Part shown: piece by piece, positions 1 through 17,640 of the stretch | Numbering within the stretch: the stretch's first letter is position 1 | Layout: each line of letters opens with the position of its first letter | Assembly: GCA_964247135.1 (NCBI GenBank) | Contig: CAXTTL010000088.1 | Span: forward strand, 1 to 17,640 | Length of the DNA stretch: 17,640 nt | Reading direction: 5' to 3' | Origin: an uncultured Deinococcales bacterium | GTDB taxonomy: Bacteria > Deinococcota > Deinococci > Deinococcales > JAAFIG01 | The notes under the pieces: generated by a model | The model's database searches: none | What the model was told of the DNA's origin: nothing | What the model saw: the letters and a program-made list of their open reading frames with translations, nothing else | Position numbers and translations under genes: made by a program

Positions 1-308
1 GCATCCTTTTGGTCTTGAGGCAGCACGCCAAAAATGACGAACGACCGTATTCCCAACTTTATGCCTCGCTCGAGTTGCGGCAAGAATTCGTCAACGCTAA
101 ACCTCGAGATTCCTGGCAGCGCCCCAATGGGTTGAATGGTTTTTGAGCCTGGAACCACAAAAAACGGCGCGATAAAATCTTGAGGGCGCAAGACTGTTTC
201 CGCCACGGAATCGCGCAATGCCGCATTCGAGCGCAACCGTCTCGGACGTTGTAAAAGCTCGAGGGCTGATTCGAGCAAAATGCTGGGTCGTTCAGTTAAA
301 TCGTGCAT
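1..308 (-). CDS. hemB: Porphobilinogen synthase (delta-aminolevulinate dehydratase), N-terminal part; runs off the window edge
   Basis: Not in the ORF track; translated by hand from ATG at 308: MHDLTERPSILLESALELLQRPRRLRSNAALRDSVAETVLRPQDFIAPFFVVPG...LPGISRFSVDE...FGVLPQDQKD. Contains the RPRRLR...AET.L HemB N-terminal motif. GGAG SD at 314-317; overlaps the hemD stop. Confidence 0.95.
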   Translation of the reverse strand, partial: MHDLTERPSILLESALELLQRPRRLRSNAALRDSVAETVLRPQDFIAPFFVVPGSKTIQPIGALPGISRFSVDEFLPQLERGIKLGIRSFVIFGVLPQDQKD

Positions 309-984
309 TGATTCTCCGATCTTTTAAGGCTTCCAACACTTCGATCACCGCAGACATCTCCGGTTTTTGCGCAACCACGCAAGCCCAACCTCGAGCCAGG
401 ATGCTGGCAGCCGTGGTCTGACCCAGCGCCACCAAATCGGCAGCTCGAGCCACATTTTCTGGAATCACATTGACCGCGCTCGGACTCATCAAGACAATCG
501 CGTGATGCTCAAAACCCAGAACATCATCCCAAGAATTGGAGCGGGTTTGATACACCTCGAGAAACCGAACCTCGAGATTTGCCGCACGTAACGCTTTAGG
601 TAAGGTCATGAGTGAATGATCGCCGCCAATGACGGCAATCGGTGATTGGGGTTTGTACTCGAGGAATTCTTTGGCGAAACTGGCACTGTTGCCGCCGATA
701 GCCATAAACGCGACGTTCGCACCAGCTTGACGCAATGCCTGCGCCGTGGCGACACCCACCGCTGCCACTTTACGCCCGACCAAAACACCAGTTTGCTGTA
801 ATGCCTCAACCGCCGCGACGCTGGTAAAGAGCCACCATTCGCAGTCCATGATTGACTCGAGGTTGACGTTAGGGATTGCGCGAGTACGAACGAGCGGGTG
901 ATGCACCACCGAAAAACCGCGTTGCTCGAGAACGGTTTGCAAAATTTCAAAACGGTTGTTGGAATGGGTCAAAATCACGTTCAT
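292..984 (-). CDS. hemD: Uroporphyrinogen-III synthase
   Basis: Motifs FTSVAAVE, AAVGVATAQAL, EVYQT, MSPSAV, ALGQTTA. Start moved from 1143 to the ATG at 984, which forms an ATGA overlap with the hemC stop (981-983). Confidence 0.92.
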   Translation of the reverse strand: MNVILTHSNNRFEILQTVLEQRGFSVVHHPLVRTRAIPNVNLESIMDCEWWLFTSVAAVEALQQTGVLVGRKVAAVGVATAQALRQAGANVAFMAIGGNSASFAKEFLEYKPQSPIAVIGGDHSLMTLPKALRAANLEVRFLEVYQTRSNSWDDVLGFEHHAIVLMSPSAVNVIPENVARAADLVALGQTTAASILARGWACVVAQKPEMSAVIEVLEALKDRRINARFN

Positions 985-1874
985 GATTTCACCAACATGT
1001 TCTCTTGGACAATCTCGGAATGAATTTTGGCAATAACATCTTCGCTCGAGCCGTGGGCTTTGTAAAAACGCCCGCCGTACCAAGCCAACAACGACACGCC
1101 ATCCTCGAGTTTGACCGCACTTGCGCCGAGCGCCAATTGACAACCACCCTCGAGACGCGCCATCAAACCACGTTCGATTTTCACGGTTTCTCGAGCTTCA
1201 AGGTTGTCCAAGGTTTTCAGAAGCTCGAGCGTTTGCACATCGTCAGTACGACACTCGAGCGCCAGTGCACCCTGTCCTGGGGCGGGAACAAAAACTTCAG
1301 GCTCGAGCGTGATGACCTCTAAATCACTCAAATCCAAATTGAGGCGTTTCAAACCCGCCACCGCCAGCACAATCGCGTCGTAATCGCCACGCCGCAATTT
1401 TTCGACCCGGGTCGGTACGTTGCCACGCAATTCGCGCAACTCGAGGTCGGGACGCAAGGCATTCAGTTGGGCTTGACGACGAACCGCACTTGTCCCAACG
1501 CTTGCGCCCAAACGCACTGGAAGTTTCAAAGCGCTCGAGTCAAAAGCGTTTGGATTGATTAAAAGCATTTCTCGAGCATCTTCACGCGCTGGAATCGCGG
1601 CGATGGTCAGCCCTGGCGTGACGGCGCTCGGCAAATCCTTTAAGGAATGCACGGCAACATCTGCGCTTCCCTCGAGCACCGCCTCTTGCACCGCCTTGGT
1701 GAAAAAACCCTGCCCCAGCATGTTGCGAAACGCTGCCGATTCGCGGTCGCCTTGGGTTTCGATAATTTTCAGTTCAACGCTTCCACCGCAAAGCTCGAGT
1801 TGCAGCCGAACCCAATTGGCTTGCCACAACGCCAAAGCGCTGCCCCGCGTTGCAATCCGAATCTTATGCACCAA
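981..1874 (-). CDS. hemC: Hydroxymethylbilane synthase (porphobilinogen deaminase)
   Basis: IATRGSALALWQA, VHSLKDLP, GTSAVRR, LRGNVPTRVEKL, PAPGQGALA, EGGC cofactor cysteine. Start is TTG 1874 or GTG 1871, overlapping the hemA stop. Confidence 0.97.
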   Translation of the reverse strand: MVHKIRIATRGSALALWQANWVRLQLELCGGSVELKIIETQGDRESAAFRNMLGQGFFTKAVQEAVLEGSADVAVHSLKDLPSAVTPGLTIAAIPAREDAREMLLINPNAFDSSALKLPVRLGASVGTSAVRRQAQLNALRPDLELRELRGNVPTRVEKLRRGDYDAIVLAVAGLKRLNLDLSDLEVITLEPEVFVPAPGQGALALECRTDDVQTLELLKTLDNLEARETVKIERGLMARLEGGCQLALGASAVKLEDGVSLLAWYGGRFYKAHGSSEDVIAKIHSEIVQENMLVKS

Positions 1875-3060
1875 CCATCACCTGATCTTCTGGTTGAAAA
1901 TTCCCTCGAGCCAAACCCGCTTCATCCAAAAAAGAGTACGCCATTTCCAGACCGTGCGCTCGAGCCAAACCGCGCAAACCCTTGACCGGAATGTGCGCGA
2001 AACGGTGCGCCAAACGCGTGACATCTTCGGGCGCGAGCAAATCGCCCACCGTGCGTTCGATGGTTTGGCGGTAAACATCACGCAGTTGACTGATCGCCGC
2101 CCCCAAGGAGCGTTCGGCAAATTCGCCCAGCGCAAGCTCGAGTTCGCTGGCAACAATCATTTCGGCTTGCGCGAGAAGGGTTTGTAATTTTTCGCGCCGC
2201 GCATCGCCCAGTTTTTGCAATTGCGCCAGATCAATCAAACGCAGGTTTGAAGCTCGAGCGTCGGTTGGATTAACGTTGCGCGGCAAGCCCAAATCGACCA
2301 GGATTTCAAGGTTTTTTTGGGTCTCGAGAAAACTTGCATTGATGATGTTTTCGGCACCTGTCGCGCAGATGATGGCGTTGACTTGGGTTGAGCCTTGCAA
2401 AAAATCCTGTAACGCCATCGCTCGAGCATTGACGCTCAAAGCCAGATTTTCAGCACGCTCGAGGTTTCGATTCACAATCAACATTTCAAACCCTGAATCC
2501 GCGAGGCTTCTTGCCACCAACGCACCCATTTCACCCGCGCCCAAAATGGAAACTCGAGCGTTTCTGGGCAGTTTCTCGAGTTCTGGTCTCGCAAGGCTGA
2601 ACAAACTCGTGTTGGCTGGCGCGAGTGCAACCTCACGGCGCACACGTTTGGCAATGCGCAAGGCAGTGTTAAAAGCAAAACTGGTCGTCGAACCCACGCG
2701 CCCAGCCTTTCGCGCCGTTTCAAACGCGACCCGCACTTGGTTCATGATCTGATCCTCGCCAGGGTTGAGCGAATCGAGCGAAGCCGCCACCCGACACAAA
2801 TGCTCGAGCGCGGCATCCCCCAAAAAAGCATAACCTCGAGCTTCAGAACCCGCGATTTGCTGACGGATTTGCTCGAGGTTTGCCGTGTCATCGAGTGCCA
2901 ACACCAACTCGCAACGGTTGCAGGTTTGAAGGCTGACCAACTCGAGCACGCCTACTGGAAGGGGCTGCTCGAGCACACCAGTCAAGGTTTCAGTCCAGGC
3001 GGTGAGCGCATCCGCGCCGCCTCGTCGTCCAGAAACCCCAATCAGTGCCAGTCGTTCCAT
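1864..3060 (-). CDS. hemA: Glutamyl-tRNA reductase
   Basis: TCNRCE catalytic Cys motif, HLCRVAASLDSLNPGEDQI, GAGEMG Rossmann motif, NRNLERA, DLGLPRNV. Start placed at ATG 3060 (alternative ATG 3072) because the longer ORF would cover the promoter region. Confidence 0.95.
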   Translation of the reverse strand: MERLALIGVSGRRGGADALTAWTETLTGVLEQPLPVGVLELVSLQTCNRCELVLALDDTANLEQIRQQIAGSEARGYAFLGDAALEHLCRVAASLDSLNPGEDQIMNQVRVAFETARKAGRVGSTTSFAFNTALRIAKRVRREVALAPANTSLFSLARPELEKLPRNARVSILGAGEMGALVARSLADSGFEMLIVNRNLERAENLALSVNARAMALQDFLQGSTQVNAIICATGAENIINASFLETQKNLEILVDLGLPRNVNPTDARASNLRLIDLAQLQKLGDARREKLQTLLAQAEMIVASELELALGEFAERSLGAAISQLRDVYRQTIERTVGDLLAPEDVTRLAHRFAHIPVKGLRGLARAHGLEMAYSFLDEAGLARGNFQPEDQVMVGA

Positions 3061-3095
3061 GCTGTTGACCATGTTGCAACAAAAGGCAATGAGGA

Positions 3096-3113
3096 GTGTC
3101 ACAAAACTGTCAG
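3096..3113. promoter_or_regulatory. OmpR/PhoB-type direct-repeat box upstream of hemA
   Basis: GTGTCACAAAACTGTCAG has TGTCA repeated with an 11-bp period and matches the Pho-box CTGTCATAAAACTGTCAT at 15/18 positions. Confidence 0.5.
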
Positions 3114-3133
3114 AGGGTTGAAACTCGGCAAAC

Positions 3134-3162
3134 TTGACTTCCAAGCTGAACAACATTATTGT
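3134..3162 (+). promoter_or_regulatory. Sigma70-type promoter for the NTase-Xre module (probably leaderless mRNA)
   Basis: TTGACT (3134-3139), 17-bp spacer, TATTGT (3157-3162), then 6 nt to GTG at 3169; no SD. Confidence 0.75.
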
Positions 3163-3169
3163 TGTTCAG
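3146..3169. promoter_or_regulatory. Palindromic operator over the -10 box, probably bound by the Xre protein
   Basis: CTGAACAACA-TTAT-TGTTGTTCAG, perfect 10-bp arms. Confidence 0.75.
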
Positions 3170-3621
3170 TGATTCCACCTTTCGACGAGCATGGAAACCT
3201 GCCCCCAGGTGAACACCCCTGCTCTTGGGACGAACTCGAGCATCGCTACGCCACCACCAGTCACCGAATCAACCTTTTAAACGGCTTGCAAGCGGCTTTG
3301 CACAACCTTCAAAGCGCTGGTTGCCGCACCGTTTGGATTGATGGCAGTTTTATCAGCGACAAAGCACAACCCAACGATTACGACGCCTGCTGGGATTCAG
3401 AAAACGTTGACCCAGATTTACTCGAGCCAACCCTGCTCAATTTTGCGCACCCTCGCAATGCCATGAAACGCAAATACCGAGGCGAATTGTTCATTGCCGA
3501 CCTACCCGCCACACCACACGGCGAAACCTTTCTGGATTTCTTTCAAAAAGACCGCAACGGCAACCCAAAAGGCATTCTCAGGCTCGACCTCTCGAGTTTA
3601 GCAACGCCAGAAAGGACGTGA
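3169..3621 (+). CDS. Minimal Pol-beta-superfamily nucleotidyltransferase-like protein (DUF6932-like), putative toxin/effector, 150 aa
   Basis: MIPPFDEHGNLPPGEH...WIDGSFISDKAQPNDYDACWD has the GS-x(8)-DxD nucleotidyltransferase motif. Start is GTG 3169; the upstream part of ORF 2737..3621 is antisense to hemA. Family name is from recall and needs an HMM check. Confidence 0.8.
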   Translation: MIPPFDEHGNLPPGEHPCSWDELEHRYATTSHRINLLNGLQAALHNLQSAGCRTVWIDGSFISDKAQPNDYDACWDSENVDPDLLEPTLLNFAHPRNAMKRKYRGELFIADLPATPHGETFLDFFQKDRNGNPKGILRLDLSSLATPERT

Positions 3622-3624
3622 ACC

Positions 3625-4020
3625 ATGATTCAGAACGAACATCAATACCGAATGACCAAAGCAGCCTTAAAGCGCTTTACGCTCGCCTTAAAAGAATATC
3701 AACCGAGTCCAAAACTTCATCCAAAACTTGCCACTGCCCAACGCGAAGCCTTTCGGGGACAGATCGATTCGCTCAAAGCCGAACTCGAGGAATTTGAACA
3801 ACTCAAACAAAATGCTTTGAATTTGGACACCGAACCGCTCGAGCGCATCGCTGAAAAACTCATTCAAGCTCGGGTTGCTCGTGGGTTCACACAAGCCGAA
3901 CTGGCGGCAAAACTCAAAATGAAACCGCAACAGATTCAACGTTACGAAGCGAGCAAATACGCCAGCGCCAGTCTTGCCAGGGTACTCGAGGTGGCACGGG
4001 TCTTACAAAACGCGAAGTAG
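3625..4020 (+). CDS. Xre/Cro-family HTH protein with N-terminal helical extension, putative antitoxin/autorepressor
   Basis: LIQARVARGFTQAELAAKLKMKPQQIQRYEASKY is an HTH_3 pattern. AGGA SD at 3613-3616; 3 nt after the upstream stop. Confidence 0.88.
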   Translation: MIQNEHQYRMTKAALKRFTLALKEYQPSPKLHPKLATAQREAFRGQIDSLKAELEEFEQLKQNALNLDTEPLERIAEKLIQARVARGFTQAELAAKLKMKPQQIQRYEASKYASASLARVLEVARVLQNAK

Positions 4021-4083
4021 TCTCGAGCTTCAGGTTTTGTTGCCCCTTGCCATCAAGCGAACTCGGGTTGTAAGGTTCGCACC

Positions 4084-5406
4084 GTGAACCCGAAACCAAA
4101 CACCACAACATCCAGTCAACTCTTCCAACGCGCCCAGCAAGTCATCCCTGGCGGCGTCAATTCTCCTGTGCGGGCTTTTGGTGCGGTGGGCGGCGTACCG
4201 AGGTTTATTGCCAAAGCCAATGGCTCGAGGATGTGGGACGAGGACGGCAACGAATTTGTGGATTACATCGGTTCGTGGGGTCCGATGATTCTTGGTCACG
4301 CACACCCAAAAGTGGCTGACGCGATTCGGCTGGCGCTCGAGGGTGGCACGAGTTTTGGAGCGCCCACAAAGCGCGAGATTGAACTTGCCGAGTTGGTCTT
4401 AAATGCCTACCCAAGCTGTGAGCGTGTGCGTTTTGTCTCGAGCGGGACTGAAGCCACCATGAGCGCTTTGCGGCTCGCTCGAGGGGTCACGGGTCGCAAG
4501 TACATTGTAAAATTCCGTGGAAATTACCACGGGCATTCGGATGGATTGTTGGTGCAGGCAGGTTCGGGCATGTTGACGGCATCTGGAGGCTCGAGCAACA
4601 GTGCGCCGAGCAGCGCTGGCGTACCAGCAGAATTTGCCAGCCTGACCTTGGTTGCCGATTACAACGTTCCTGAAACACTCGAGCAATTGTTTGCAAATTT
4701 TCCAGAGCAAATAGCCGCCGTGATTTTTGAACCCGTGGTCGGCAACGCGGGGCTGCTCGAGCCGACAGCAGCATTTTTAAAAAGCCTGCATGAACTTTGC
4801 AAAACCAATGGCACGCTGCTTATTGCCGATGAAGTCATGACCGGTTTTAGACTCTCACCAGGCGGCGCAACCCAACTTCTCAAACTCGAGCCTGACATTG
4901 TTTGCTGGGGTAAAATTATTGGCGGCGGCTTGCCCGTCGGAGCTTACGGTGCAAAGGCGAGCATCATGGATTTTGTCGCACCGAGCGGTCCTGTCTACCA
5001 AGCGGGAACACTTTCAGGCAACCCACTGGCGATGGCGGCAGGCATCGCCACCCTGACCGAACTCGCGCTCAACCCACCGTATGCACAACTCGAGGCTTAC
5101 GGAGCACAGTTGCAATCGGGGTTGGAACTGCTGGCGCTAGAAGCTGGCGTACCATTGACGGTCAACCGCGTCGGTTCAATGATGACGGCATTCTTTCAAG
5201 CTGGTGAAGTTCGGACGTACAACGATGCCGTGAAATCTGACACCGAAGCCTTCAAAGTGTTTTTCAACGCCATGCTCGAGCGCGGCGTGTACTTTCCTCC
5301 AAGTCAATTTGAAGCCGCATTCATCTCGAGCAAGCACGATCAAACCGACCTCGAGTTGACCTTGAATGCGGCGCGAGAAGCGTTAGGGGTTGTTGCAAGA
5401 GGTTAA
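4084..5406 (+). CDS. hemL: Glutamate-1-semialdehyde 2,1-aminomutase
   Basis: PGGVNSPVRAF, DYIGSWGPMILGH, SSGTEATM, DEVMTGFR, GKIIGGGLPVG (PLP lysine), YQAGTLSGNP. TAAGGT -10 box at 4071-4076, 7 nt before the GTG. Confidence 0.98.
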   Translation: MNPKPNTTTSSQLFQRAQQVIPGGVNSPVRAFGAVGGVPRFIAKANGSRMWDEDGNEFVDYIGSWGPMILGHAHPKVADAIRLALEGGTSFGAPTKREIELAELVLNAYPSCERVRFVSSGTEATMSALRLARGVTGRKYIVKFRGNYHGHSDGLLVQAGSGMLTASGGSSNSAPSSAGVPAEFASLTLVADYNVPETLEQLFANFPEQIAAVIFEPVVGNAGLLEPTAAFLKSLHELCKTNGTLLIADEVMTGFRLSPGGATQLLKLEPDIVCWGKIIGGGLPVGAYGAKASIMDFVAPSGPVYQAGTLSGNPLAMAAGIATLTELALNPPYAQLEAYGAQLQSGLELLALEAGVPLTVNRVGSMMTAFFQAGEVRTYNDAVKSDTEAFKVFFNAMLERGVYFPPSQFEAAFISSKHDQTDLELTLNAAREALGVVARG

Positions 5407-5414
5407 ATCTTGCT

Positions 5415-5801
5415 TTAAATATCTATTTGCTCTGATGATCTAATTTTTTGTTTGATTTCTCTATAGAAATTCAGTGTATCTCAAGGGTAAATAACGTAAC
5501 CTTGAAATTTTTCAGTAAAAGCAAATTTAACTTTGCGATTCGTAGTGATATAAATTTTTGAGATGGGAAGTACGGTTCTTGGGTCTGGGAAGGAGGTTTT
5601 ACTTGAAACAATATTCATTTTTTGATTATTGATGGAAAGAAAAAGAATTTCACTATATTTAATGAAATTCTGTTGATAATTTAGAAAATAGATACCAATA
5701 CCGTCTTTTTCTAGTTTATATCTGATAAGTATTTTATGGTAGCCAAACAGTGCAACGTATACATACAATACAAAAAATATCGTAACAAAAACTTCGCTCA
5801 T
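5415..5801 (-). pseudogene. AT-rich small membrane-anchored protein (TM helix plus possible bacterial PH-like domain) interrupted by an in-frame TGA at 5481-5483
   Basis: ATG at 5801 lies 1 nt after the permease stop. MSEVFVTIFFVLYVYVALFG TM segment. After the TGA the frame continues DTLNFYREIKQKIRSSEQIDI to TAA at 5415-5417, 8 bp from the hemL stop. Domain call is tentative. Confidence 0.6.
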
Positions 5802-5802
5802 A

Positions 5803-7601: not shown

Positions 7602-7704
7602 GCTGTCAGGAAGCATACCGCATTCGGTCTAAGTCCAGCGCAGGTTTTTCGCATCGGGAATTCTGACCCCTGAAATCCAGGCTCGAGTGCGGTACGCTAA
7701 CCCC

Positions 7705-9163: not shown

Positions 9164-9574
9164 ATGATTGCCTCTGCCGAAGAATTTGTTCAACTGCGAG
9201 GCAGCAGCCTCATGCACGAGTACCTACGAGCCGCCCATGAATCGGCTGAGATTCAAGTGTGGCTCGAGGTCATTGAAAAATTTCCCGAGTATCATTTTTG
9301 GGTTGCACACAATAAAACAATTCCGAACGAGATCATCCAACTGCTTTCAGAATCATCCGATACTCCAGTAAGGCATATGATTGCGAGCAAAAGAAAAACC
9401 CCAGCGTACATCCTCGAGAAACTCTCTCGAGATACCGATGAATCTGTGCGTTTGCGGGTTGCGTATAACGCCAAAGTTCCCACAGAAATTCTTGTTGCGA
9501 TGCTTGATGACCCTTGGGAAGAAGTCGTCAGAATCGTGCAGGAAAAACTAACTCAACGCGAATCAAAACCTTAA
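9164..9574 (+). CDS. Small HEAT/LRV-repeat hypothetical protein
   Basis: GGAGG SD at 9155-9159. About 24-aa repeats: VAHNKTIPNEIIQLLSESSDTPVR / IASKRKTPAYILEKLSRDTDESVR / VAYNAKVPTEILVAMLDDPWEEVV. Confidence 0.8.
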   Translation: MIASAEEFVQLRGSSLMHEYLRAAHESAEIQVWLEVIEKFPEYHFWVAHNKTIPNEIIQLLSESSDTPVRHMIASKRKTPAYILEKLSRDTDESVRLRVAYNAKVPTEILVAMLDDPWEEVVRIVQEKLTQRESKP

Positions 9575-10839
9575 TTCCCAACATCCTCGAGTGAGCGCAA
9601 TGCCGTCTCGAGGATCACATCTCGTCCCAAGCTGAGCGAAAGCATGTCCTCGGGCACGATTTGATCTGGTGTGACACGGTTTGGAAATTTTGTACCGTCC
9701 GCGTTTTGGGCGCGTCCCAAACTGATTGCCATGCTCGAGCCGTCGGGCAGGTTAAAAAAACTGTTGCTGGTGTCGAGTGCGCCCAGGGTTGGTGTGCCAT
9801 AGACTTTGGCGCGGGCGTTTTTTTGCAGGATGTACGCCAAATATTCGGGCGCACTTTTGGCAATGCTGTTGGTTAAGACCGCAAGTTTTCCCGTCCAAAA
9901 CGCGGGTTGCGCGACCAGTGGCACGGTACTCACGCTATCGTTTTCGGTTTGCATGAATTTGCCGTTTGCAAATTCAAATTTCAGTTTGCCCCAACGAAAT
10001 TCGTCGAGCAGCACTGGATGCTCGACGAATGCGCCGACGCTGGCAAGCATTTCGGTGACCAAACCGCCGGCGCTATCACGCACGTCTAAAACAATAGCTC
10101 GAGGTTGATTCTTTTGGGCTTGACGCACCAGGGCATGAATTCTGCTGGCGACTTGCCCACCGGCTTTAAATTGAAAAATCGTGATGATGGCAACGTTGCC
10201 GCGCCACTCGAGTTGCGGCGACCAGGGTGCAAGGTAGCTGGGTGTGACCTCAAGCGTGTGCGTGGCAGCATCGACGCTGGCAACTCGGATTTTAAAGCTT
10301 TTGTTTTCCGCCTCGAGTGCTTTGAATGCGTCGATGGCTTCGATTTCGTTTTTGAATTGACTGGTTTTGAAATCCCCAAATTTGTAAATTCGGTCGCCTC
10401 GTTTTAAACCTGCTTTATCGGCGGGACTGCCCTGCAAGACCCGATTGACCAGCAGCACATCCGAATCGGGCAAGCTGCTCAAACGCACGCCAATGCTGGT
10501 GGTCGGTAAGCTCTGCCCTGCAAATTCTCGGTCCCTGGCTTTGGTTTGCTCCACGTCCAACCTGTAAGTGTGCGGGTCGTTCAGGCTCGAGATCATGGCG
10601 TTCACCACACCCTCGGCGGCGCTGAACGGGCAAGGATTCAGGTTTTTGCAAGCCTGCTCGAGTTGCGGTTGAAATTGGCTGCGTAAATCCTTGATGTTCA
10701 AACTCGAGTAACCGTAATAGTTGGTGTCCAGCAACTCGAGGGTTTTTTCAAACAGTTGCACCCCTGGCGCGACAAGATCGGCTTTGGAAAATGACAATGC
10801 CAGCAAGAGCACAACAATGCCGAACGCAGGAAATTTCAT
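9571..10839 (-). CDS. Secreted S41-family peptidase with PDZ domain
   Basis: Signal peptide MKFPAFGIVVLLLALSFSKA, LNDPHT, PDZ GSPADKAGLKRGDRI, LDVRDSAGG, KSAPE catalytic Ser, VTPDQIV. TAAGCT box 8 nt before ATG 10839. Confidence 0.9.
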   Translation of the reverse strand: MKFPAFGIVVLLLALSFSKADLVAPGVQLFEKTLELLDTNYYGYSSLNIKDLRSQFQPQLEQACKNLNPCPFSAAEGVVNAMISSLNDPHTYRLDVEQTKARDREFAGQSLPTTSIGVRLSSLPDSDVLLVNRVLQGSPADKAGLKRGDRIYKFGDFKTSQFKNEIEAIDAFKALEAENKSFKIRVASVDAATHTLEVTPSYLAPWSPQLEWRGNVAIITIFQFKAGGQVASRIHALVRQAQKNQPRAIVLDVRDSAGGLVTEMLASVGAFVEHPVLLDEFRWGKLKFEFANGKFMQTENDSVSTVPLVAQPAFWTGKLAVLTNSIAKSAPEYLAYILQKNARAKVYGTPTLGALDTSNSFFNLPDGSSMAISLGRAQNADGTKFPNRVTPDQIVPEDMLSLSLGRDVILETALRSLEDVGN

Positions 10840-10952
10840 TGGGGTAAAGCTTAACGCCGCAATGCTTGAAATTCTCGAGAGGGCTTTAAGAAACGTGAGT
10901 TTAGATTCCATGACAAACTTCATGAAGACCAGATTCAAACTACACCCGAGAT

Positions 10953-11492
10953 TTAGGCGGGTACAAGTAAGGCGTGCAAGACATCAAAGACCAGTAAAAA
11001 ACCGCCTTGAATCAATATTGCTGTGCCAGCGCCGCGCCAAGTCTCTTCTGTTCTCGAGACCAAATACAAGCCGCTCGCCACGTACAAAATGTCCAAACCA
11101 GCGTTGATCCAGAGTGTGTTGCGCAACCCCGCATAATCTTGGGTTTCAGCGCCGAGCAAGCCAATCAAAGCGATTGCACCATTCACAAACCCCCAAGCGC
11201 CGCTCATGCCCCAAAACCCTTTTTGCGAATCGGTACTCGAGAGCCACAAACCCAGCACGCTCGCACCCATCCAAGGGATAGCCCAAACCAGCAGACGTTT
11301 GGAAATTTGAGAACCCGCAAATCCTGGCTCGAGGTTGCCGAACAGGGTTTGCAGGACGTTCAAACTTTTTGCAATTGTTGGTGTTGTTTCTGGGGCGGCT
11401 TGCAAGCTCGAGAATACGATGTGAAATTCTTGGGCTTGGGTGGGAACGAGCGCCATAACAAACACGAGCACAAAAACCAGGAATACTTTCAT
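10953..11492 (-). CDS. Hypothetical membrane protein (signal peptide plus about 4 TM; DUF6992-like)
   Basis: WGFVNGAIA, INAGLDILYV, GTAILIQGGFLLVFD pattern. TAAACT box 6 nt before the ATG. Family label is from recall. Confidence 0.8.
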   Translation of the reverse strand: MKVFLVFVLVFVMALVPTQAQEFHIVFSSLQAAPETTPTIAKSLNVLQTLFGNLEPGFAGSQISKRLLVWAIPWMGASVLGLWLSSTDSQKGFWGMSGAWGFVNGAIALIGLLGAETQDYAGLRNTLWINAGLDILYVASGLYLVSRTEETWRGAGTAILIQGGFLLVFDVLHALLVPA

Positions 11493-11501
11493 GGCTCGAG
11501 T

Positions 11502-12767
11502 TTAAAGCATTTCGAGACTGGATTGATGGTCATTCGGGTCGGCGATTTGACCATCATCCTCGAGCCTTAAATCTCGCAGTTTCGGCGCGAGAATTGTGCT
11601 GCCCGCCACCACGCCCAGCGTCACCAGTCCACCCATCCAAACGCTGCGCACCACACCAAGCAAGCTGGCGGCAAACCCGCTTTCAAACGCCCCAATCTCG
11701 TTGCTCGAGCCAATAAAAATCCAGGTCACGGCGGCGATCCTGCCGCGCATGTGCTCTGGGGACATGACGCGTTGGATGGCGCTACGGATAATCATGCTGA
11801 CGCCGTCGAACGCGCCCGAAAGTGCCAGGGCGAACATTGAAAGCCAGAGGTTCCTCGAGAAGGCGAAAAGAATAATGGACAAGCCAAAGCCTGCGACTGC
11901 CAAGAGCAGGTTGCGTCCCGCCGTGCGGGTGGGTGGATAACGCGTGGCAATCAGCATGGTCAGCAGCGTGCCGATAGAGGTTGAAGCGCTGAGCAAGCCC
12001 AGACCGCCAGCGCCAACGTGCAAAATGTCGTTGGCGAACACGGGCAGCAACGCGACCGCGCCACCGAACAAGACCGCGATCAAGTCCAGCGCCATCGAAC
12101 CGACCAGCACTTGGTTGGCGAAAACATATCGCACACCTTCAGAAATACTTTGCCAAATATTTTCACTTTCATCTGGCACGGGCACGGGCTTGCTCGAGAG
12201 GCTGGCGATGCAAAGCCATGACAACCCGAGCAGGATGGCAATCAAAACATAAGTGGCGGTCACGCCAAAGGCATCGTAAGCCACGCCGCCCAAAGCGGGT
12301 CCAATGATCGAGCTGCCCTGCCCAACGCTCGATAAGAGCGCACTCGAGCGAACGAACGTGGCTTGTGGGATGACCTGGGTTTCAAAGGCGCTGGCGGCAG
12401 GATCACCGAATCCTCTGGCAAGACCCGCCACAAAAACCACGGCGTACATCGACAGCAAGCCAAAACGTTGTGGCTCAAGCGAGAACACGGCAAACGCCAC
12501 AATGCACAAAATGTTGATACCTCGGGTGACCAGGACAATCAAACGGCGGTCGAGACGGTCTGCGACATGCCCACCAAAAAGTGCCAGCGACAAAGCCGGA
12601 ATCGCTTCGACCAGTCCCAGAAATCCGAGGCTGAGCGGATTTTTGGTGAGGGCATAAATTTGGTATCCGATCACCACGGTCAAAGCACGATTGGCAAGCG
12701 CACCGAACATGCTCTCGAGCAACAATATTCTAAACTCGAGCGGTAAAGAGACAGCATTGGGTTTCAT
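11502..12767 (-). CDS. MFS transporter (DHA3/EntS-like)
   Basis: About 12 TM segments; motif A GGHVADRLDRR; PEHMRGR; AAGGA SD upstream. Confidence 0.93.
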   Translation of the reverse strand: MKPNAVSLPLEFRILLLESMFGALANRALTVVIGYQIYALTKNPLSLGFLGLVEAIPALSLALFGGHVADRLDRRLIVLVTRGINILCIVAFAVFSLEPQRFGLLSMYAVVFVAGLARGFGDPAASAFETQVIPQATFVRSSALLSSVGQGSSIIGPALGGVAYDAFGVTATYVLIAILLGLSWLCIASLSSKPVPVPDESENIWQSISEGVRYVFANQVLVGSMALDLIAVLFGGAVALLPVFANDILHVGAGGLGLLSASTSIGTLLTMLIATRYPPTRTAGRNLLLAVAGFGLSIILFAFSRNLWLSMFALALSGAFDGVSMIIRSAIQRVMSPEHMRGRIAAVTWIFIGSSNEIGAFESGFAASLLGVVRSVWMGGLVTLGVVAGSTILAPKLRDLRLEDDGQIADPNDHQSSLEML

Positions 12768-12841
12768 GAAATTCCTTGGTTGGTCTGGAGTTTGCTCGAG
12801 CGCTGTGCGAGACTTCGGAATTCATCATGCCATGAACTCAG

Positions 12842-12873
12842 AAAAAAACGCACGACTGAAACCAGTCGTGCGT
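12842..12873 (-). terminator. Rho-independent terminator of the foldase gene
   Basis: Perfect 11-bp stem ACGCACGACTG/CAGTCGTGCGT with a 4-nt loop, followed on the minus strand by a T run; 16 bp after the stop. Confidence 0.92.
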
Positions 12874-12889
12874 CGCTCGAGATTGATGT

Positions 12890-14923
12890 TTACTTTGAGG
12901 CTGGCGGTGCGGTTGGGGTGGTTGGCGTTGTGGTTGGAGTCGTTGGCGTGGTGGTCGGAGTTGTGGTTGCGCCAGGAGTTGTGGGGGTTGTGGTTGGGTT
13001 TAGCTTCTCGCGTTCGGCTTTGGCTTTGGCATCGGCGGCGGCTTTGTCGGCATCGGCTTTCTTGGCGCGAAGCTCGAGTTGTTTGCGGACATCGTCGTAC
13101 TTTTTGACGGGTTTGGCGGCTTTAACGGTGTCGGTCAGCCATTTTTGTCCGACCACGGCGCGTTTGCCGATCAAGGCTTTGTCTTTGGCATCACTGGCAA
13201 CCTCAGTAAATGGTTTGACGCTCTTTTCGATGTAAGATTTCACGCCGACCACGACAAACTGCTTGTTGTTGGCGATCACGTCAGTGACTTGTAACGCGCC
13301 CGCTTTGGTCAGGGCTTTGGCTTCAAACAGCACTTTTTTGTAGGCTGGATTGACGCTCTCTGGGGTCACAGAACCAGTCTCGGTGACTGTCCCTTTTTGC
13401 TTGGCGGCATCCTTGGTGAAATCCGTTCCGCCGGCAATGAACGCGGTGCGGAAGGCTTTGGCTTGCTCGAGGGTCTTGAAGCTTGCCTCCTCGATGTCGG
13501 CGCTGGCTGGGGTGGTGTAGGTGGCGATGTTGTCGGTGTAATACTTTTTCACGTCCGCGTCGGTGATGGTGGTGTCTTTGGATTGATAGTTTTGAATTTG
13601 TTGCAGTATGTCTGCGCTCGCACCGAAGAAGGGTTGCCCGCTCTTCTTGGCGGCTTGCACGGCGACCTCTCGGTTGATCAGGTTGTCCAGGCTTTGCGGT
13701 TTGAAGAATTGCTCGACCAGCGTTGCGCCCTGGGCACCCTGCTGCAAGAATTGTTGAATCTGTTGGTTGCTGTAGACCTCACGGTTGAGTTCTGAAAGCT
13801 TGATGTCGGTTTTGCCGACGGTGGCGACGGCAGGGTCGTAAAAGTCGAGGGTCGAATCTTTTGGAAACTCGAGTTTGGCGTTTTGCTGTAAGCCCTTGAC
13901 CCAGGCTTCGATGGCGCCGTTGCCTTTCAAGGCTTTGGCATCTTCGGTCAGTTTGTTGGTCTCTTTACCGTCGGCGGCTTTGTCCATTTTGGCTTTTAAA
14001 GTTTCAAAACTTGGCACGCCGGCAGGCAAGAATTTTTCGACCTTGACAATGTAGAATTTGCCGCCGTCGGCGATGGTTGGCGTCACGCCGCCCTGTTTGA
14101 GTTTAAACGCGGCATCGGCAATGTTTTTGGGCAGGGCGATGTCGGCAATCGGTTGCGGGATTTTCTCGCCCGTTTTGGCGCCCAGAGCGCCGTCTTGATC
14201 TTTGCCAATCGTGCTCTTTTCGTGCGCGAGTTTGTCGAAGGCTTCGCCAGCTTTGAGGCTGGCTTGAATCGCGTCGGCATCGGCTTGTTTGTCCACCACA
14301 ATTTGACGCGCCAGAATGCGGTCGTTTTCTTTGTAGTTGTTTTTGTTTTGATCGTAAAAGAATTTCAGTTCGGCATCACTTATCGTGACGCCCTTTTGAA
14401 TCTCTTCGATGCGTTTGGTCAATTGCAATTGTTGACGCACGGCATCGCGGAAGGTGGCGTCGTTGTAACCGTTGGACTGCACAAAAGCCGTGTAATCCGA
14501 ATCTTTGGTCAGTTGGCGTTGGGCGCGAAGGTCGGTGATGTACTTGCTGACATCGCCACCGCTGACGTTGGTGCGGCTGGCATCTTGGCGGGCGCTCGAG
14601 ACGAGCACGAGTTGGTTCATTAAAAGGTTGTTGACGTCTTGTTGAAACGTTCCGCCGTTGGCGAGTCCGAAGAGTTGATTTTGCTGTTTGGTTCGGTCGT
14701 AATCTTGTTCGGTGACGGGTGTGCCATTGACGCTGAACAAAGTCTTGCCATTGGTACGCTGCGGACCACCGGTCAAAGACGCCAGGTTGGGCGTAAATTG
14801 CACGATCATGCCCGCCAGCAATGCCACCGCCACAACGCCGAGCACCACCCGTGCCAGGACGGTGCGTTTGGAGGTGGGTTCGGATTGCTCGAGGGCTGCG
14901 TATTTCTTTGGTGTTTCTCTCAC
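12890..14923 (-). CDS. Membrane-anchored parvulin-type peptidyl-prolyl isomerase / foldase (PrsA/PpiD/SurA-like)
   Basis: AGGAGG 7 nt before the GTG. N-terminal TM, SurA_N-like SVNGTPVT, parvulin ARQIVV...GEAFDKLAHEKS...GGKFYIVKVE, a second degenerate repeat, and a Thr/Pro tail. Confidence 0.9.
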   Translation of the reverse strand: MRETPKKYAALEQSEPTSKRTVLARVVLGVVAVALLAGMIVQFTPNLASLTGGPQRTNGKTLFSVNGTPVTEQDYDRTKQQNQLFGLANGGTFQQDVNNLLMNQLVLVSSARQDASRTNVSGGDVSKYITDLRAQRQLTKDSDYTAFVQSNGYNDATFRDAVRQQLQLTKRIEEIQKGVTISDAELKFFYDQNKNNYKENDRILARQIVVDKQADADAIQASLKAGEAFDKLAHEKSTIGKDQDGALGAKTGEKIPQPIADIALPKNIADAAFKLKQGGVTPTIADGGKFYIVKVEKFLPAGVPSFETLKAKMDKAADGKETNKLTEDAKALKGNGAIEAWVKGLQQNAKLEFPKDSTLDFYDPAVATVGKTDIKLSELNREVYSNQQIQQFLQQGAQGATLVEQFFKPQSLDNLINREVAVQAAKKSGQPFFGASADILQQIQNYQSKDTTITDADVKKYYTDNIATYTTPASADIEEASFKTLEQAKAFRTAFIAGGTDFTKDAAKQKGTVTETGSVTPESVNPAYKKVLFEAKALTKAGALQVTDVIANNKQFVVVGVKSYIEKSVKPFTEVASDAKDKALIGKRAVVGQKWLTDTVKAAKPVKKYDDVRKQLELRAKKADADKAAADAKAKAEREKLNPTTTPTTPGATTTPTTTPTTPTTTPTTPTAPPASK
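12902..12998 (-). repeat. Low-complexity Thr/Pro (TTPT) coding repeat at the foldase C-terminus
   Basis: Encodes PTTTPTTPGATTTPTTTPTTPTTTPTTPTAPP with varied synonymous codons. Confidence 0.85.
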
Positions 14924-14984
14924 GTTACTGCCTCCTGTGACGGTTGGATCACGTTGTTAATTTCATTGCTCACACTTTATTGGC

Positions 14985-15014
14985 TTGCACTCTATCGGGT
15001 TGTCAGTGTACTCT
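14985..15014 (+). promoter_or_regulatory. Candidate tRNA promoter
   Basis: TTGCAC (14985-14990), 18-bp spacer, TACTCT (15009-15014). Confidence 0.45.
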
Positions 15015-15049
15015 TCAAACAGATGCTTGACGCATCGTTGGTTCTTTTT

Positions 15050-15126
15050 GCACCCGTAGCTCAGCCGGATAGAGCGTTGCCCTCCGGAGGCAAAGGTCAC
15101 AGATTCGAATTCTGTCGGGTGCACCA
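15050..15126 (+). tRNA. tRNA-Arg(CCG)
   Basis: Acceptor GCACCCG/CGGGTGC, D arm GCTC/GAGC, anticodon arm TTGCC-CTCCGGA-GGCAA (CCG at 15084-15086), T arm ACAGA-TTCGAAT-TCTGT, encoded CCA; 77 nt. Confidence 0.97.
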
Positions 15127-15469
15127 AAAACAAATTCCTTTCAAGGTTTCGGCACGGGTTTGCACTTGCAAGCTCGCGCGCGAAATTCTAGCACGGCTTT
15201 GGGGGTTTGATGTACCAAAACCCGATAACACGCCGTATTGGTCGCGCGTCCATGATTTCAGGCTTTGCTGTGCAAATGCTGAACCGACTTGCAGCAAGGC
15301 GTTGAACTCGAGTTGCCTGCGAACTTCATGGGTTTTTGAAATCGGTAATGGATTGGAAATGCTCGAGCCATACATTAAAAGTTGCTCGAGTGTTCAGATC
15401 GGTTGAAGTTTTTTAACAAACCAATTTTCCAAGTTGAGTTTTAGCACTCTGCCTCTGACTTTTTGGGTC

Positions 15470-15498
15470 TTGACAAATGATTTTAAAGCCTGTAACTT
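15470..15498 (+). promoter_or_regulatory. Sigma70 promoter of the LacI/ABC sugar operon
   Basis: TTGACA (15470-15475), 17-bp spacer, TAACTT (15493-15498). Confidence 0.8.
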
Positions 15499-15530
15499 TA
15501 CCGCTAAAGAAACCAAGTTTACCGCTAAAG
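15496..15530. promoter_or_regulatory. Two tandem LacI-type operators
   Basis: TTTACCGCTAAAG at 15497-15509 and 15518-15530. Quasi-palindrome TTTAnCGnTAAA with central CG; 21-bp period; overlaps the -10 box and the expected TSS. Confidence 0.85.
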
Positions 15531-15592
15531 CATGGGCTTTCAATTGAAAGCACTATTGTTTAGTCGTATTTAACGCCCTACGAGGTCTTTCT

Positions 15593-16675
15593 ATGGCTGA
15601 ATCCAATTCAGGGGTCACGCTCGCCGATGTCGCCAAGCTTGCCGGCGTTTCCAAAATGACCGTTTCCAACGTCATCAACGGCAAAAACGGCATGTCGCAG
15701 GAAACCCGTCAGCGCGTCTTAAAGGCGATCAGCCAATGCGGTTACGTGGCAAACTCGGCGGCTCGAGTTTTGGCTGGGCAGAGCATGAACCTGTTGGGTG
15801 TGATTTTGCCCCAGTTTGATTCTTTGTACCTCAACGAAATTTTGCTGGGCGCGAGCGTTGCCGCCGAAAAAAATGGTTTTGATTTGGCGGTTTTTACCAC
15901 CTCGAGCAACATCAAACGTGAACGCGAACGGGCGACTTTGCTGCGTAGTCTTGCCGATGGGGTTTTGCTTTTGATGCCCGTGGCGGACGAGCATCAGATT
16001 TTTATGAATTCCATTCCGGTCGTGACCATCAATGCCGACGGAACCTACACCATTCAGGCGGACAACAAGCGCGGCGGTCAACTGGCGGCACAACATTTGC
16101 TCGATCTGGGTCATACCCGCATCGCGCACATTCATTTCCCAACCGAAACCGTCAAATCCAAAGAAGATGTTGTCTATGTCCCCCGAGCCGATGTCCTCGA
16201 GCGTCAGCAAGGGTTTTTGGAAACCTTGCAGTTGGCTGGAATCAAAACCCCTAAAGAATATTTGGTTAAATGCAACACCATCAATTGCTGGGTTGAGGGT
16301 GCCGCCCAAGACGCAGCACTGACCCTGCTCAATCTTGATCTGCCGCCGAGCGCCATTTTTGCCGCCAGCGACGAGATGGCAATCGGTGTTTTGCGAGCCG
16401 CCCAGATCATGGGCTTGCGCGTTCCCGAAGACCTGTCAATCATTGGCTTTGACGATGCGCCACGTTCCGCCAACACCAATCCCCCCTTAACCACCGTGCG
16501 TCAACCCTTGCGCGAGATGGGCGCGGCTGCCGCACAACTCTTAAGCGACTTGGCTCGAGGGGAAACCCCATTTGAGCCTCACCCCTGTTTTCCAACTTCA
16601 TTGATCGTTCGCGCCTCAACGGCTTTACCAAACAAGCAATCTCGAGTATCAAAGGTTCTGGAACTGAGGAGGTAA
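15593..16675 (+). CDS. LacI-family transcriptional regulator
   Basis: TLADVAKLAGVSKMTVSNVIN HTH, AARVL hinge, LGHTRIA, AIFAASDEMA, VPEDLSIIGFDD, PPLTTVRQP. Confidence 0.97.
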   Translation: MAESNSGVTLADVAKLAGVSKMTVSNVINGKNGMSQETRQRVLKAISQCGYVANSAARVLAGQSMNLLGVILPQFDSLYLNEILLGASVAAEKNGFDLAVFTTSSNIKRERERATLLRSLADGVLLLMPVADEHQIFMNSIPVVTINADGTYTIQADNKRGGQLAAQHLLDLGHTRIAHIHFPTETVKSKEDVVYVPRADVLERQQGFLETLQLAGIKTPKEYLVKCNTINCWVEGAAQDAALTLLNLDLPPSAIFAASDEMAIGVLRAAQIMGLRVPEDLSIIGFDDAPRSANTNPPLTTVRQPLREMGAAAAQLLSDLARGETPFEPHPCFPTSLIVRASTALPNKQSRVSKVLELRR

Positions 16676-16733
16676 AGGCAAGGAAATTCGTTTTTTTGGT
16701 TCGCAGGATTCAAACGTTTTCAGGAGGATTGAC

Positions 16734-17640
16734 ATGAACAATCGAAACAAGAGTTTATTGGCAATGGCAGGGGTCGCGGCGGTCAGTTTCTTCGCCTTCG
16801 CCCAAGAACTTCCGCGCAATCAAACGCTCTACATTGGCGGTTTTCAATGGGGACCACCGACCAGTTACAACCCCGTCGGTTCTGGTGTGGCTTGGCCCGC
16901 TCAAGGGCAGTACGAGTACATTTACGAAACCTTGTACGGCTATAACCTTCTCACCGGTGCGCTCGACCCGATTCTGGCTTCCAAACTCGAGCAACCAGAC
17001 GGATCAACCTTAAAAGTGACCCTGCAAGACGGCACGCGCTGGCAGGACGGCAAAGCCTTGACGAGCAAAGATGTTTTGTACAGCTTTGAGCTTGCCAAAC
17101 GCCAAAACGTTTCTTACACCGCGTTCTGGGATTACGTCTCGAGCATGACCATCAACGATGCCAAGACCTTGACGATCAAACTGAACACGAAGAAACTCAA
17201 CATTGGTCTGGTCAAACAAAACCTGGCGTACACCGCTATTTTGCCGCAACACATCTGGGCTGGACTCGAGAAGAGCGAAAAGTCATTAATCGGTTATTCC
17301 AACATGAAACCCATCGGTTCTGGACCCTATATTCTCAGCAGCGCCAACAATGAACGCGTTGTGCTACAACGCAACGAAAAATATTGGGGCAAAAAAGTCT
17401 ACGGTATGCCAGCTCCCAAGTACGTGGTTCACCCGATTTTCAAATCCAACGACGCGGGCAACCTGGCGTTCGAGCAGGGTCAAGTTGATCTAAGCCAGCA
17501 ATTTGCGCCCGAAATCTGGAAGATGTGGGAAGACAAGAAATTGCCAGTTTCCACCTGGTCAAAATCTGAACTGATCCACGTTCCTGGTTCGATCCCACTG
17601 GTCTTTTTCAACACCGCCACGAAAGGGCTTGACAACGTGT
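16734..17640 (+). CDS. ABC transporter family-5 solute-binding protein, oligosaccharide-binding type; runs off the window edge
   Basis: Not in the ORF track; AGGAGG SD then an open frame to the end: MNNRNKSLLAMAGVAAVSFFAFA-QELPRNQTLYIGGFQWGPPTSYNP...RWQDGKALTSKDVLYSF...PIGSGPY...RNEKYWG. Resembles Thermotoga cello-oligosaccharide-binding proteins (recall). Confidence 0.92.
   Translation, partial: MNNRNKSLLAMAGVAAVSFFAFAQELPRNQTLYIGGFQWGPPTSYNPVGSGVAWPAQGQYEYIYETLYGYNLLTGALDPILASKLEQPDGSTLKVTLQDGTRWQDGKALTSKDVLYSFELAKRQNVSYTAFWDYVSSMTINDAKTLTIKLNTKKLNIGLVKQNLAYTAILPQHIWAGLEKSEKSLIGYSNMKPIGSGPYILSSANNERVVLQRNEKYWGKKVYGMPAPKYVVHPIFKSNDAGNLAFEQGQVDLSQQFAPEIWKMWEDKKLPVSTWSKSELIHVPGSIPLVFFNTATKGLDNV

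Follow-up and report, generated by a model that had tools for sequence, protein, structure and literature searches.

CTCGAG and the closest described systems

The closest described counterpart of the element reported here is HIP1 (GCGATCGC), the highly iterated palindrome (HIP) of cyanobacteria. The element, CTCGAG, is repeated throughout a 17,640-base stretch of DNA (hereafter the window), which comprises positions 1-17640 of contig C88 in the assembly G000 of an uncultured Deinococcales bacterium (5,091,702 bases, 386 contigs, 84% complete). In this bacterium and in every family genome sampled, the six bases of CTCGAG, and no more, make up a highly iterated palindrome of the HIP1 type, spread nearly at random over coding and non-coding DNA. 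Like HIP1 and the alternate HIPs, as they are characterized in PMC5861425 and PMC4390886, it is a short GC-rich palindrome in tens-fold excess, conserved and lineage-wide, and it is present in all frames and outside genes. The traits of the class were found here as a genome-wide excess of 24.7-fold (the threshold applied being 15-fold), occurrence in all frames and in non-coding DNA, conservation of position and presence across the lineage (19 of 19 family genomes, in five genera; none of the 232 other genomes of the order reaches 4 sites/kb). The CTCGAG case is of the same kind as cyanobacterial HIP1, but in a different phylum (Deinococcota) and with a different word, shorter (6 instead of 8 bp), denser (6,660 sites per Mb in G000, where Table 2 of PMC4390886 gives HIP1 300-2,700) and with no apparent methyltransferase association; HIP1 tracks DmtA and DmtC, whereas no co-distributed methyltransferase was found for CTCGAG. 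A full-text search, the coverage of which leaves out most subscription journals, found no paper on CTCGAG hyper-abundance, and Elhai 2015 (PMC4390886) mentions neither CTCGAG nor Deinococc. For HIP1 a periodicity of 10-90 kb has been reported. The HIP1 word itself, with its inner CGATCG/GATC, is not the one iterated here, and CGATCG is reduced to 47 copies in G000 (observed-to-expected ratio, O/E, 0.03).

The uptake signal sequences (USS) of Haemophilus and the DNA uptake sequences (DUS) of Neisseria are words of 9-12 bp that are not palindromic, occur about once per kb and are considered to accumulate by molecular drive. Like them, on the usual account of USS/DUS, CTCGAG is a family-wide word found within and between genes that alters proteins and is absent from apparently acquired DNA; the competence proteins ComEC (contig C337) and DprA (C148) are encoded in G000 and equally in the control genomes of Thermus and Deinococcus, which lack the motif. 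It differs from them in being an exact 6-bp palindrome with no asymmetric core, at 6.7 per kb and randomly spaced. Very-short-patch repair by the Dcm/Vsr system, which restores the palindromic target of the methyltransferase (CCWGG, in excess in Escherichia coli) and thereby skews word frequencies, offers the nearest functioning model known for site-directed conversion, but its effect is far smaller than about 25-fold. Moreover, Vsr was found in none of the 19 family genomes (metagenome-assembled genomes, MAGs, 57-94% complete, for which an absence means here and below 'not found'), two of them (G008 and G015) show no match to a C5 methyltransferase, and the bias covers transversion neighbours of CTCGAG besides transitions of the T:G type. 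The restriction-modification (R-M) systems XhoI and PaeR7I share the hexamer as target, and an XhoI-family endonuclease with a PF01555 methyltransferase occurs in Thermaceae of the same order. However, the target of an R-M system is normally avoided, as it is in a Deinococcus-like family of the order, and in the family studied here neither the endonuclease nor the methyltransferase linked to it was found.

The excess in coding and non-coding DNA

Genome-wide, G000 contains 33,925 CTCGAG at a GC content of 0.527, which is 24.7 times the zero-order expectation and puts a site every 148-150 bp, with 4.0% of all bases taken up by the word; the runner-up among enriched 6-bp palindromes, TTTAAA, attains 3.7-fold. 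The Markov O/E is 24.7, 35.2, 14.4, 3.4 and 1.2 for orders 0 to 4, respectively. The drop at orders 3 and 4 arises because 33,925 of the 38,652 CTCGA belong to CTCGAG sites, and with 88% of CTCGA so placed the order-4 figure is circular. TCGA inside CTCGAG represents 62% of all TCGA, the copies outside the site are at expectation (20,685 observed, 19,771 expected), and the remaining 15 NTCGAN words have 121-2,188 copies each. The initial annotation of the window, made from the sequence alone, had drawn attention to the TaqI core TCGA, which is of no help since TCGA outside the hexamer is not enriched. It had also allowed that its proposal of a genome-wide process might be undone by TCGA or lower-order bias, or by a confinement of the excess to this window or assembly; neither proved to be the case, the O/E being still 14.4 at order 2 and the excess being both genome-wide and family-wide.

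The one-mismatch neighbours of CTCGAG form nine classes of 203-4,350 copies each. For the eight classes computed (the CTAG-containing one, CTAGAG/CTCTAG, was omitted), sites outnumber neighbours 16- to 49-fold per mutational route (ln 2.75-3.9), whether the route is a transition or a transversion. Treated as a mutation-fixation balance that ignores coding constraint, this ratio would correspond to a scaled advantage of about 3 per site, which would be comparable in size to codon-usage selection or to biased gene conversion, and not to the advantage of an individually essential element. The flanks do not extend the palindrome and show weak preferences only (A at -3, 0.37-0.42; G at -1, 0.36-0.39), equal in non-coding DNA and overall.

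Coding DNA was represented by a crude gene set based on open reading frames (ORFs; 4,092 genes, 81% of the G000 genome), and the codon null was obtained by shuffling synonymous codons within each gene, keeping the protein and the codon usage of the gene. The coding sequences hold 27,111 CTCGAG against 3,774 +/- 59 in this amino-acid-preserving shuffle, a 7.2-fold excess obtained even though the codon usage entering the null is already inflated by the sites; a codon permutation null gives 1,620. Divided by phase, 16,984 sites are CTC-GAG (phase 0), 3,956 are nCT-CGA-G (phase 1) and 6,171 are nnC-TCG-AG (phase 2), against 2,956, 265 and 553 in the shuffle, that is, excesses of 5.7-, 14.9- and 11.2-fold, with phase 0 accounting for 63% of the coding sites. 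Intergenic gaps of 30-300 bp (246 kb, GC 0.467) contain 2,247 sites where 51.9 are expected (43-fold), and their density of 9.15/kb compares with 6.56/kb in the coding sequences. Both figures agree with the earlier claim that protein or codon bias alone would be insufficient, and the disappearance of the excess under codon-preserving shuffling, named in the initial annotation as a refutation, did not occur. Around gene starts and ends the sites are evenly distributed and take no fixed position, a small spike after stop codons excepted. CTCGAG begins exactly 2 nt past the stop codon (TAA/TGA-NN-CTCGAG) in 197 of 3,933 genes, which fits a supply of the preferred A at -3 by the last A of the stop codon.

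The proteins carry the imprint of the sites. Leu-Glu is the top over-represented dipeptide (O/E 2.35, about 12,600 surplus copies, against 1.01 for Glu-Leu), and CTCGAG spells 77% of its 22,002 occurrences, as against about 11% predicted from codon usage; Ser-Ser, the phase 2 counterpart, ranks third with an O/E of 1.62. As many as 44% of all CTC and GAG codons lie in CTCGAG sites, together with 31% of CGA and 29% of TCG. The force acting on CTCGAG is strong enough to rewrite both codon choice and protein sequence.

Alignment with relatives shows that the sites are held in place over evolutionary time. Four relatives with 84.5-87% nucleotide identity retain 68 of 92, 45 of 59, 72 of 100 and 17 of 21 sites of the window (72-81%), whereas control 6-mers touching no site are conserved at 38-44%; this is how the comparison of orthologues, suggested as a check in the initial annotation, turned out. 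Identity at third codon positions is 0.860 within sites and 0.679 elsewhere, and in the DNA beyond called genes it is 0.895 within sites and 0.813 elsewhere. Compensating turnover was not found, a relative-only site lying within 30 bp for 2 of 70 lost sites against about 3.7 by chance. Private sites in the aligned DNA number 24 in the window against 9, 14 against 9, and 28 against 10 in the comparisons with three public MAGs (L001-L003), counted with no outgroup polarization; the lineage of the window may still gain sites, or its relatives may lose them. Over the whole genome the spacing is near-exponential (mean 148 bp, coefficient of variation 0.96), with no helical (10-11 bp) or short-range periodicity; spacings below about 20 bp are under-represented and one of 6 bp never occurs. 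None of the 1,473 5-kb windows examined has fewer than 8 sites.

CTCGAG density is reduced under high constraint, expression or foreignness. The genes for solute-binding proteins (39 homologues) carry 3.0 CTCGAG/kb against 6.5/kb for the rest, are poorer in sites than the permease genes of their own operons, and make up 7 of the 20 site-poorest long genes; the PpiD-like gene of the window fits this genome-wide deficit of exported and solute-binding proteins. Expression level, export or low Glu content may be the cause. Site-poor genes of this sort are located at C1:85083-86447, C69:2-1345 and C1:60250-61809 and, within the window, at 12890-14923 and 16734-17639; few sites are likewise found in genes with signal-like N-termini and in those for ammonium transporters and secreted peptidases. 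Two ORFs of 135 and 156 aa just upstream of EF-G, taken by their position as rpsL and rpsG, have no CTCGAG, and EF-G itself has 4.2/kb. Ribosomal protein L2 is not in the G000 assembly, and the main ribosomal operon is unusable as a high-expression control. Low-GC, acquired-looking genes, namely a reverse transcriptase-protease fusion, an AAA_16 protein and an O-antigen ligase, are also devoid of sites, as expected if resident DNA is converted gradually. The fusion, of a reverse transcriptase with a trypsin-like protease (G000:C4:51606-53234, + strand, 542 aa, GC 0.35), looks like a recently acquired defence-type retroelement.

For the window itself the initial annotation had given a hand count of about 122 CTCGAG against 4-5 expected, roughly a 25-fold enrichment. 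The number is exactly 122, with the first site at 69 and the last at 17265-17270, at a GC content of 0.530 and a density of 6.92 sites/kb; the zero-order rate of the whole genome predicts about 4.7 per 17.6 kb, and 200 dinucleotide-preserving shuffles of the window gave a mean of 2.90 (standard deviation 1.63, maximum 7), none of them reaching 122. The three codon phases already noticed are represented by 69 (phase 0), 19 (phase 1) and 26 (phase 2) of the 114 sites in ORFs, and the string GAA CTC GAG GAA TTT GAA, cited at 3781, is found in the sequence. Eight of the nine positions that had been listed as non-coding stand (4022, 7682, 11495, 12795, 12876, 15307, 15362 and 15385), while the ninth, 10874, falls in the S41 peptidase ORF if this begins at its called TTG. 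The genes of the window are housekeeping ones: hemA/C/D/L, ABC transporter parts, an FAD oxidase, an S41 peptidase, an MFS transporter, a PpiD-like chaperone and a LacI regulator. Individual sites and genes are collected in Table 1.

Table 1. CTCGAG sites and site-poor genes of the 17,640-base window (HTH, helix-turn-helix)
Feature	Position	Strand	Remark
CTCGAG array, dispersed	69..17270		122 sites; 114 in ORFs, 8 non-coding
Phase 0 site (Leu-Glu) inside HTH gene 3625-4020	3784..3789	+	GAG within site, GAA flanking
Non-coding site, HTH gene / hemL gap	4022..4027		ORF map
Site in divergent intergenic region, ABC ATPase / FAD oxidase	7682..7687		its final base opens the GTG start at 7687
Closest CTCGAG pair of the window	9413..9431		starts 13 bp apart
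Site within S41 peptidase ORF 9571-10938 (-)	10874..10879		ORF as called from a putative TTG start
Non-coding site, DUF6992 gene / MFS gene gap	11495..11500		ORF map
Two non-coding sites, MFS gene / PpiD-like gene gap	12795-12800 and 12876-12881		ORF map
PpiD-like periplasmic chaperone gene	12890..14923	-	site-poorest of the window genes, 2.5/kb with 5 sites
Three non-coding sites (15307, 15362, 15385)	15307..15390		669-bp gap, PpiD-like gene / LacI-family gene
SBP_bac_5 gene	16734-17639		3.3 CTCGAG/kb

Distribution across the Deinococcales and avoidance of other words

The HemL protein of the window is 87-91% identical to those of four public Deinococcales MAGs, whose loci carry 6.4-8.2 CTCGAG/kb, and 64-66% identical to those of Deinococcus species, which bears out the placement in Deinococcota supposed in the initial annotation. 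In a species-level collection with 251 genomes of the order, 19 of them in the family, the 18 family genomes other than G000 (five genera) hold 12,028-35,442 CTCGAG each, or 4.3-6.8/kb. The density across the order is bimodal, with all 19 family genomes at or above 4.3/kb and all 232 others at or below 3.5/kb; the latter include G250, a genome marked unpublished on which no other result depends. The 70 genomes of the Deinococcus-like family avoid the word (0.01-0.46 CTCGAG/kb), and an XhoI-family endonuclease was not found in the six of them that were searched. Sister lineages of one order have, as observed, opposite biases for CTCGAG.

The codon and non-coding nulls were applied to sampled DNA, the samples obtained from the moderately enriched G128, G126 and G152, whose first contigs are short, amounting to 18.5, 5.8 and 2.9 kb. 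The ratio to the codon null and the non-coding O/E were, respectively, 5.8 and 21 in the single-contig family genome G011 (80 kb), 8.1 and 31 in L001 and L003 taken together, 1.9 and 6.5 in G019 of a neighbouring family, 3.4 and 5.5 in G128, 6.1 and 6.3 in the MAG L010, and 9.5 and 5.1 in two low-GC 'Trueperaceae' MAGs (L013 and L014). In Thermus (L011 and L012) they were 1.0 and 0, and in Deinococcus (L005-L008) 0.3 and 0. The trait is strongest in one family, weaker in some neighbours, absent in Thermus and reversed in Deinococcus. Among viral contigs a specific pattern for the family signature returned 40 stretches, none combining a GC of about 0.5, few GGCC and at least 5 sites/kb, in a collection that may lack phages of this family; in a broader triple-site scan the matches listed were mostly of GC 0.6-0.7 and GGCC-rich.

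Other words are strikingly scarce in G000. There are 0 copies of GAGCTC, 1 of GGGCCC, 3 of CGGCCG, 4 of AGGCCT, 5 of CGTACG and 7 of GGATCC, followed by CCGCGG (11), CAGCTG (15) and GCATGC (17), and GGCC has 380 copies (O/E 0.02). Of the 2,080 canonical 6-mers, 49 have an O/E below 0.05, and 19 of these are palindromic. The avoided patterns match GGCC, GRGCYC, RGATCY and similar restriction targets. The total lack of GAGCTC, considered as a mirror of the CTCGAG excess, was rejected in that role, since it is part of a general avoidance of GRGCYC; GAGCTC stays below 30 copies in most family genomes. The lineage has been shaped to an extreme degree by R-M enzymes, which makes a domesticated R-M-type protein a plausible source of the activity considered below.

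A proposed conversion or repair bias and its rivals

The pattern requires a force that: (i) operates at the DNA level; (ii) reads six positions; (iii) is independent of neighbouring sites; (iv) is weak per site yet ubiquitous, and (v) is heritable at the level of the family. A genome-wide process acting on DNA had been proposed from the window alone, and the codon and dipeptide nulls, the non-coding excess, the conservation in orthologues and the family-wide presence bear the proposal out. We infer a weak and ubiquitous fixation bias that is independent of density and directed to the whole hexamer, with a scaled strength of about e^3 per site as judged from the ratios of sites to neighbours. 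As to its agent, our preference, which is tentative and held clearly below even confidence, is for a site-directed gene conversion or repair bias exerted by a candidate enzyme derived from an R-M system. A CTCGAG-recognising enzyme of R-M ancestry would act on mismatches in replication or recombination heteroduplex, and these would be resolved towards the strand bearing the intact CTCGAG. Near-sites would in this way be converted to CTCGAG, and existing sites restored. Conversion or repair bias is by its nature density-independent. The candidate enzyme is not of the Vsr family, not of the XhoI family and not tied to any methyltransferase orthologue shared by the family. In broader terms, a new sequence-specific genome drive, be it a novel class of site-directed enzyme for conversion or repair (with no kinship to Vsr and no dependence on a conserved methyltransferase) or a competence or nucleoid system reading a 6-bp palindrome, is a serious prospect to which we give somewhat less than even confidence.

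A number of results weigh against a conversion or repair enzyme. The near-cognate words do not show the depletion (O/E 0.5-1.7, the CTAG-containing one excepted) that one might expect of a very efficient converter. A weak additive selection for binding sites would equally lead one to expect site conservation, Poisson spacing and a lower density under constraint; conservation does not separate the two models, since sites are also lost more slowly under a transmission bias. The remaining results come from gene content. The XhoI endonuclease family (PF04555) and Vsr (PF03852) were each found in 0 of the 19 family genomes. The XhoI-family endonuclease is present in two Thermaceae genomes, where it adjoins a PF01555 methyltransferase; homologues of this methyltransferase 63-73% identical exist elsewhere in the order, but no close one was found in the family, only motif-level matches of at most 47% over about 70 residues. 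Four methyltransferases or methyltransferase-like proteins of G000 traced across 40 relatives, those of C14 and C178 (both C5), C36 (N6_N4) and C4 (466 aa), are patchy, with close orthologues in 2-4 other family genomes each and identities from 89% down to 50%. No orthologous group in PF01555, PF07669, PF00145 or PF02384 is common to five representative genomes, the PF02384 (N6_Mtase) matches falling into unrelated groups, and no shared group was found in PF02086 over 40 relatives. A C5 methyltransferase (PF00145) gave no match in G008, which is 91% complete, two C5 queries gave none in G008 or G015, and an N6_N4 methyltransferase gave none in the single-contig G011. Methyltransferases of the D12 class are present in 18 of the 19 family genomes and belong to at least four unrelated groups.

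Gene content lends no support to a conserved cognate methyltransferase, to Vsr-type repair or to an XhoI-type system, and the route that the initial annotation had named first, by way of a methyltransferase or Vsr and ahead of an uptake or recombination signal and of nucleoid protein binding, met only with negatives (no shared methyltransferase orthologue; neither Vsr nor an XhoI-type endonuclease or methyltransferase in any of the 19). Non-orthologous enzymes with CTCGAG as their target may exist, specificity being unreadable from sequence and most genomes being incomplete. Beyond the four traced, G000 has further methyltransferase matches, namely N6_N4 enzymes on C189 and C207 and as a fragment on C4, two MmeI-like proteins and the methyltransferase-SNF2 fusion of C112. 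Matches of about 500 aa to 'Eco57I' were discarded as mostly type I HsdM, since the HsdM_N domain is present in three of five and solved HsdM structures are matched by the protein of G011.

Among the D12 groups the best conserved is group A, present in seven family genomes and one neighbour, which matches M.CbeI (PDB 7M6B, E 1.7e-91). We take the target of M.CbeI to be GGCC, and this fits the near-absence of GGCC in G000 and not CTCGAG. Group A may be an orphan GGCC methylase in a lineage almost devoid of GGCC. M.CbeI is described in PMC8616854 as an alpha-class N4-cytosine enzyme. The group A gene of G011 (L130:2977-3825), with orthologues in G002-G005, G007, G016 and G019, has housekeeping genes (GH76/GH125 hydrolases, prfB) around it and no evident endonuclease. 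Group B occurs in seven family genomes and is followed, in the two genomes examined, by a conserved 364-365-aa ORF that belongs to no Pfam family; from this arrangement the two genes look like a type II R-M pair with a novel candidate endonuclease. The group B adenine methyltransferases of two genera, G000:C320:1061-2985 (-) and G011 L138:2977-4904, are 83% identical, and the identity to those of G005 and G001 is 77%. Finally, the fusion at G000:C112:1668-6167 (-), of 1,499 aa, combines an N6-adenine methyltransferase domain at its N-terminus with a SNF2 helicase at its C-terminus, and the gene next to it (C112:8744-10603, no Pfam family) has 1 CTCGAG in 1,860 bp; the locus is possibly a defence island.

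A by-product of composition, whether of codon usage, Leu-Glu, TCGA or lower-order bias or the avoidance of other palindromes, or else an artefact of assembly or binning, deserves practically no credence. The predominance of phase 0 among coding sites, the Thermus count that codon usage fully explains and the order-4 O/E of just 1.2 could be quoted for it; yet that last figure is circular, TCGA outside the site is at expectation, the excess is 7.2-fold over the codon null and 43-fold in intergenic gaps, the spelling of Leu-Glu exceeds what codon usage predicts, and the excess recurs in all 19 family genomes, including the public MAGs L001-L004. The codon null, the cross-lineage nulls and the TCGA and Markov counts refute it. 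We also regard as very unlikely the methylation-centred model of HIPs (Elhai 2015), according to which an orphan CTCGAG methyltransferase would mark the sites, and methyl-directed mismatch repair or a self-marking function would generate and maintain them. The alternate HIPs of cyanobacteria co-occur with cognate methyltransferases (PMC4390886), and CTCGAG is a 5-methylcytosine motif in Halorubrum (PMC8112702) and a methylation motif common to thermophile genomes (bioRxiv 10.64898/2026.06.24.734251). Methyltransferases are many in the family genomes, but no orthologue was found to be common to the family, the four traced in G000 are patchy, the five representative genomes share no group in any of the five Pfam families (PF00145, PF01555, PF07669, PF02086 and PF02384), and D12 group B is paired with a conserved candidate endonuclease. 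The best-conserved group, group A, points through M.CbeI to what is presumably a GGCC target.

CTCGAG could also be an uptake or transformation signal propagated by molecular drive, a competence or post-uptake step preferring DNA with CTCGAG, methylated or not, so that conspecific alleles richer in sites would be taken up and recombined more often, as with USS and DUS and, by a recent proposal, HIP1; we consider this unlikely. Thermus and Deinococcus are naturally competent, ComEC and DprA are present, and the whole family has the motif, graded versions of which exist in neighbouring lineages; it occurs within genes as well as in non-coding DNA, alters amino acids and is missing from low-GC acquired genes. 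However, at one site per 148 bp any kilobase fragment has several, and one more should hardly affect its uptake, while a classical drive should be saturated at about one site per fragment; with its exact six bases and weak flanks the motif is unlike the known uptake sequences; the sites are spaced no more evenly than chance would have it, and their loss is not compensated; and the Thermus and Deinococcus controls possess ComEC and DprA with no enrichment. We rank an uptake drive below conversion or repair because saturation has been passed and the known signals are longer and asymmetric. It gains from HIP1 itself, which is reported in PMC13756078 and bioRxiv 10.1101/2024.09.10.611283 to enhance transformation in a way that depends on methylation and to co-vary with secretion and competence genes. 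A weak additive selection for the sites of an abundant CTCGAG-specific nucleoid-associated or chromosome-organising protein, which we rate as no less unlikely than uptake and no more so, fits the pattern nearly as well as conversion or repair does. For HIP1, binding-site selection is the reading favoured by Xu et al., who take conservation of position as a sign of selection (PMC5861425). The conserved positions include synonymous and non-coding ones, the coverage is uniform, with at least 8 sites in every 5-kb window examined, and such selection would explain the deficit in the genes likely to be highly expressed (solute-binding, putative rpsL/rpsG, EF-G), where occupancy would hinder transcription. 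On the other hand, regular spacing, helical phasing and compensating turnover are all missing, 6 bp make a short palindrome for a DNA-binding protein that is dimeric, and no candidate protein was found.

HIPs have so far been a cyanobacterial curiosity, lacking an agreed mechanism over three decades, and their occurrence in an independent phylum shows that the phenomenon is general. A single order, with a strong family, weak lineages, a neutral Thermus and an avoiding Deinococcus-like family, constitutes a natural experiment that enables comparative gene hunting and work at the bench, and the neighbouring lineages with the weaker form include several genomes of 2-3.5 sites/kb that are 99-100% complete and may be cultured. 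The CTCGAG case shows how far a force at the DNA level can bend a proteome. In practice, CTCGAG density is a sharp signature for binning and for spotting foreign DNA in this family, and XhoI would cut unmodified DNA of these organisms to fragments of about 150 bp. If a genome drive is indeed responsible, the family would provide a second, independent and possibly more tractable system for the 30-year-old HIP problem.

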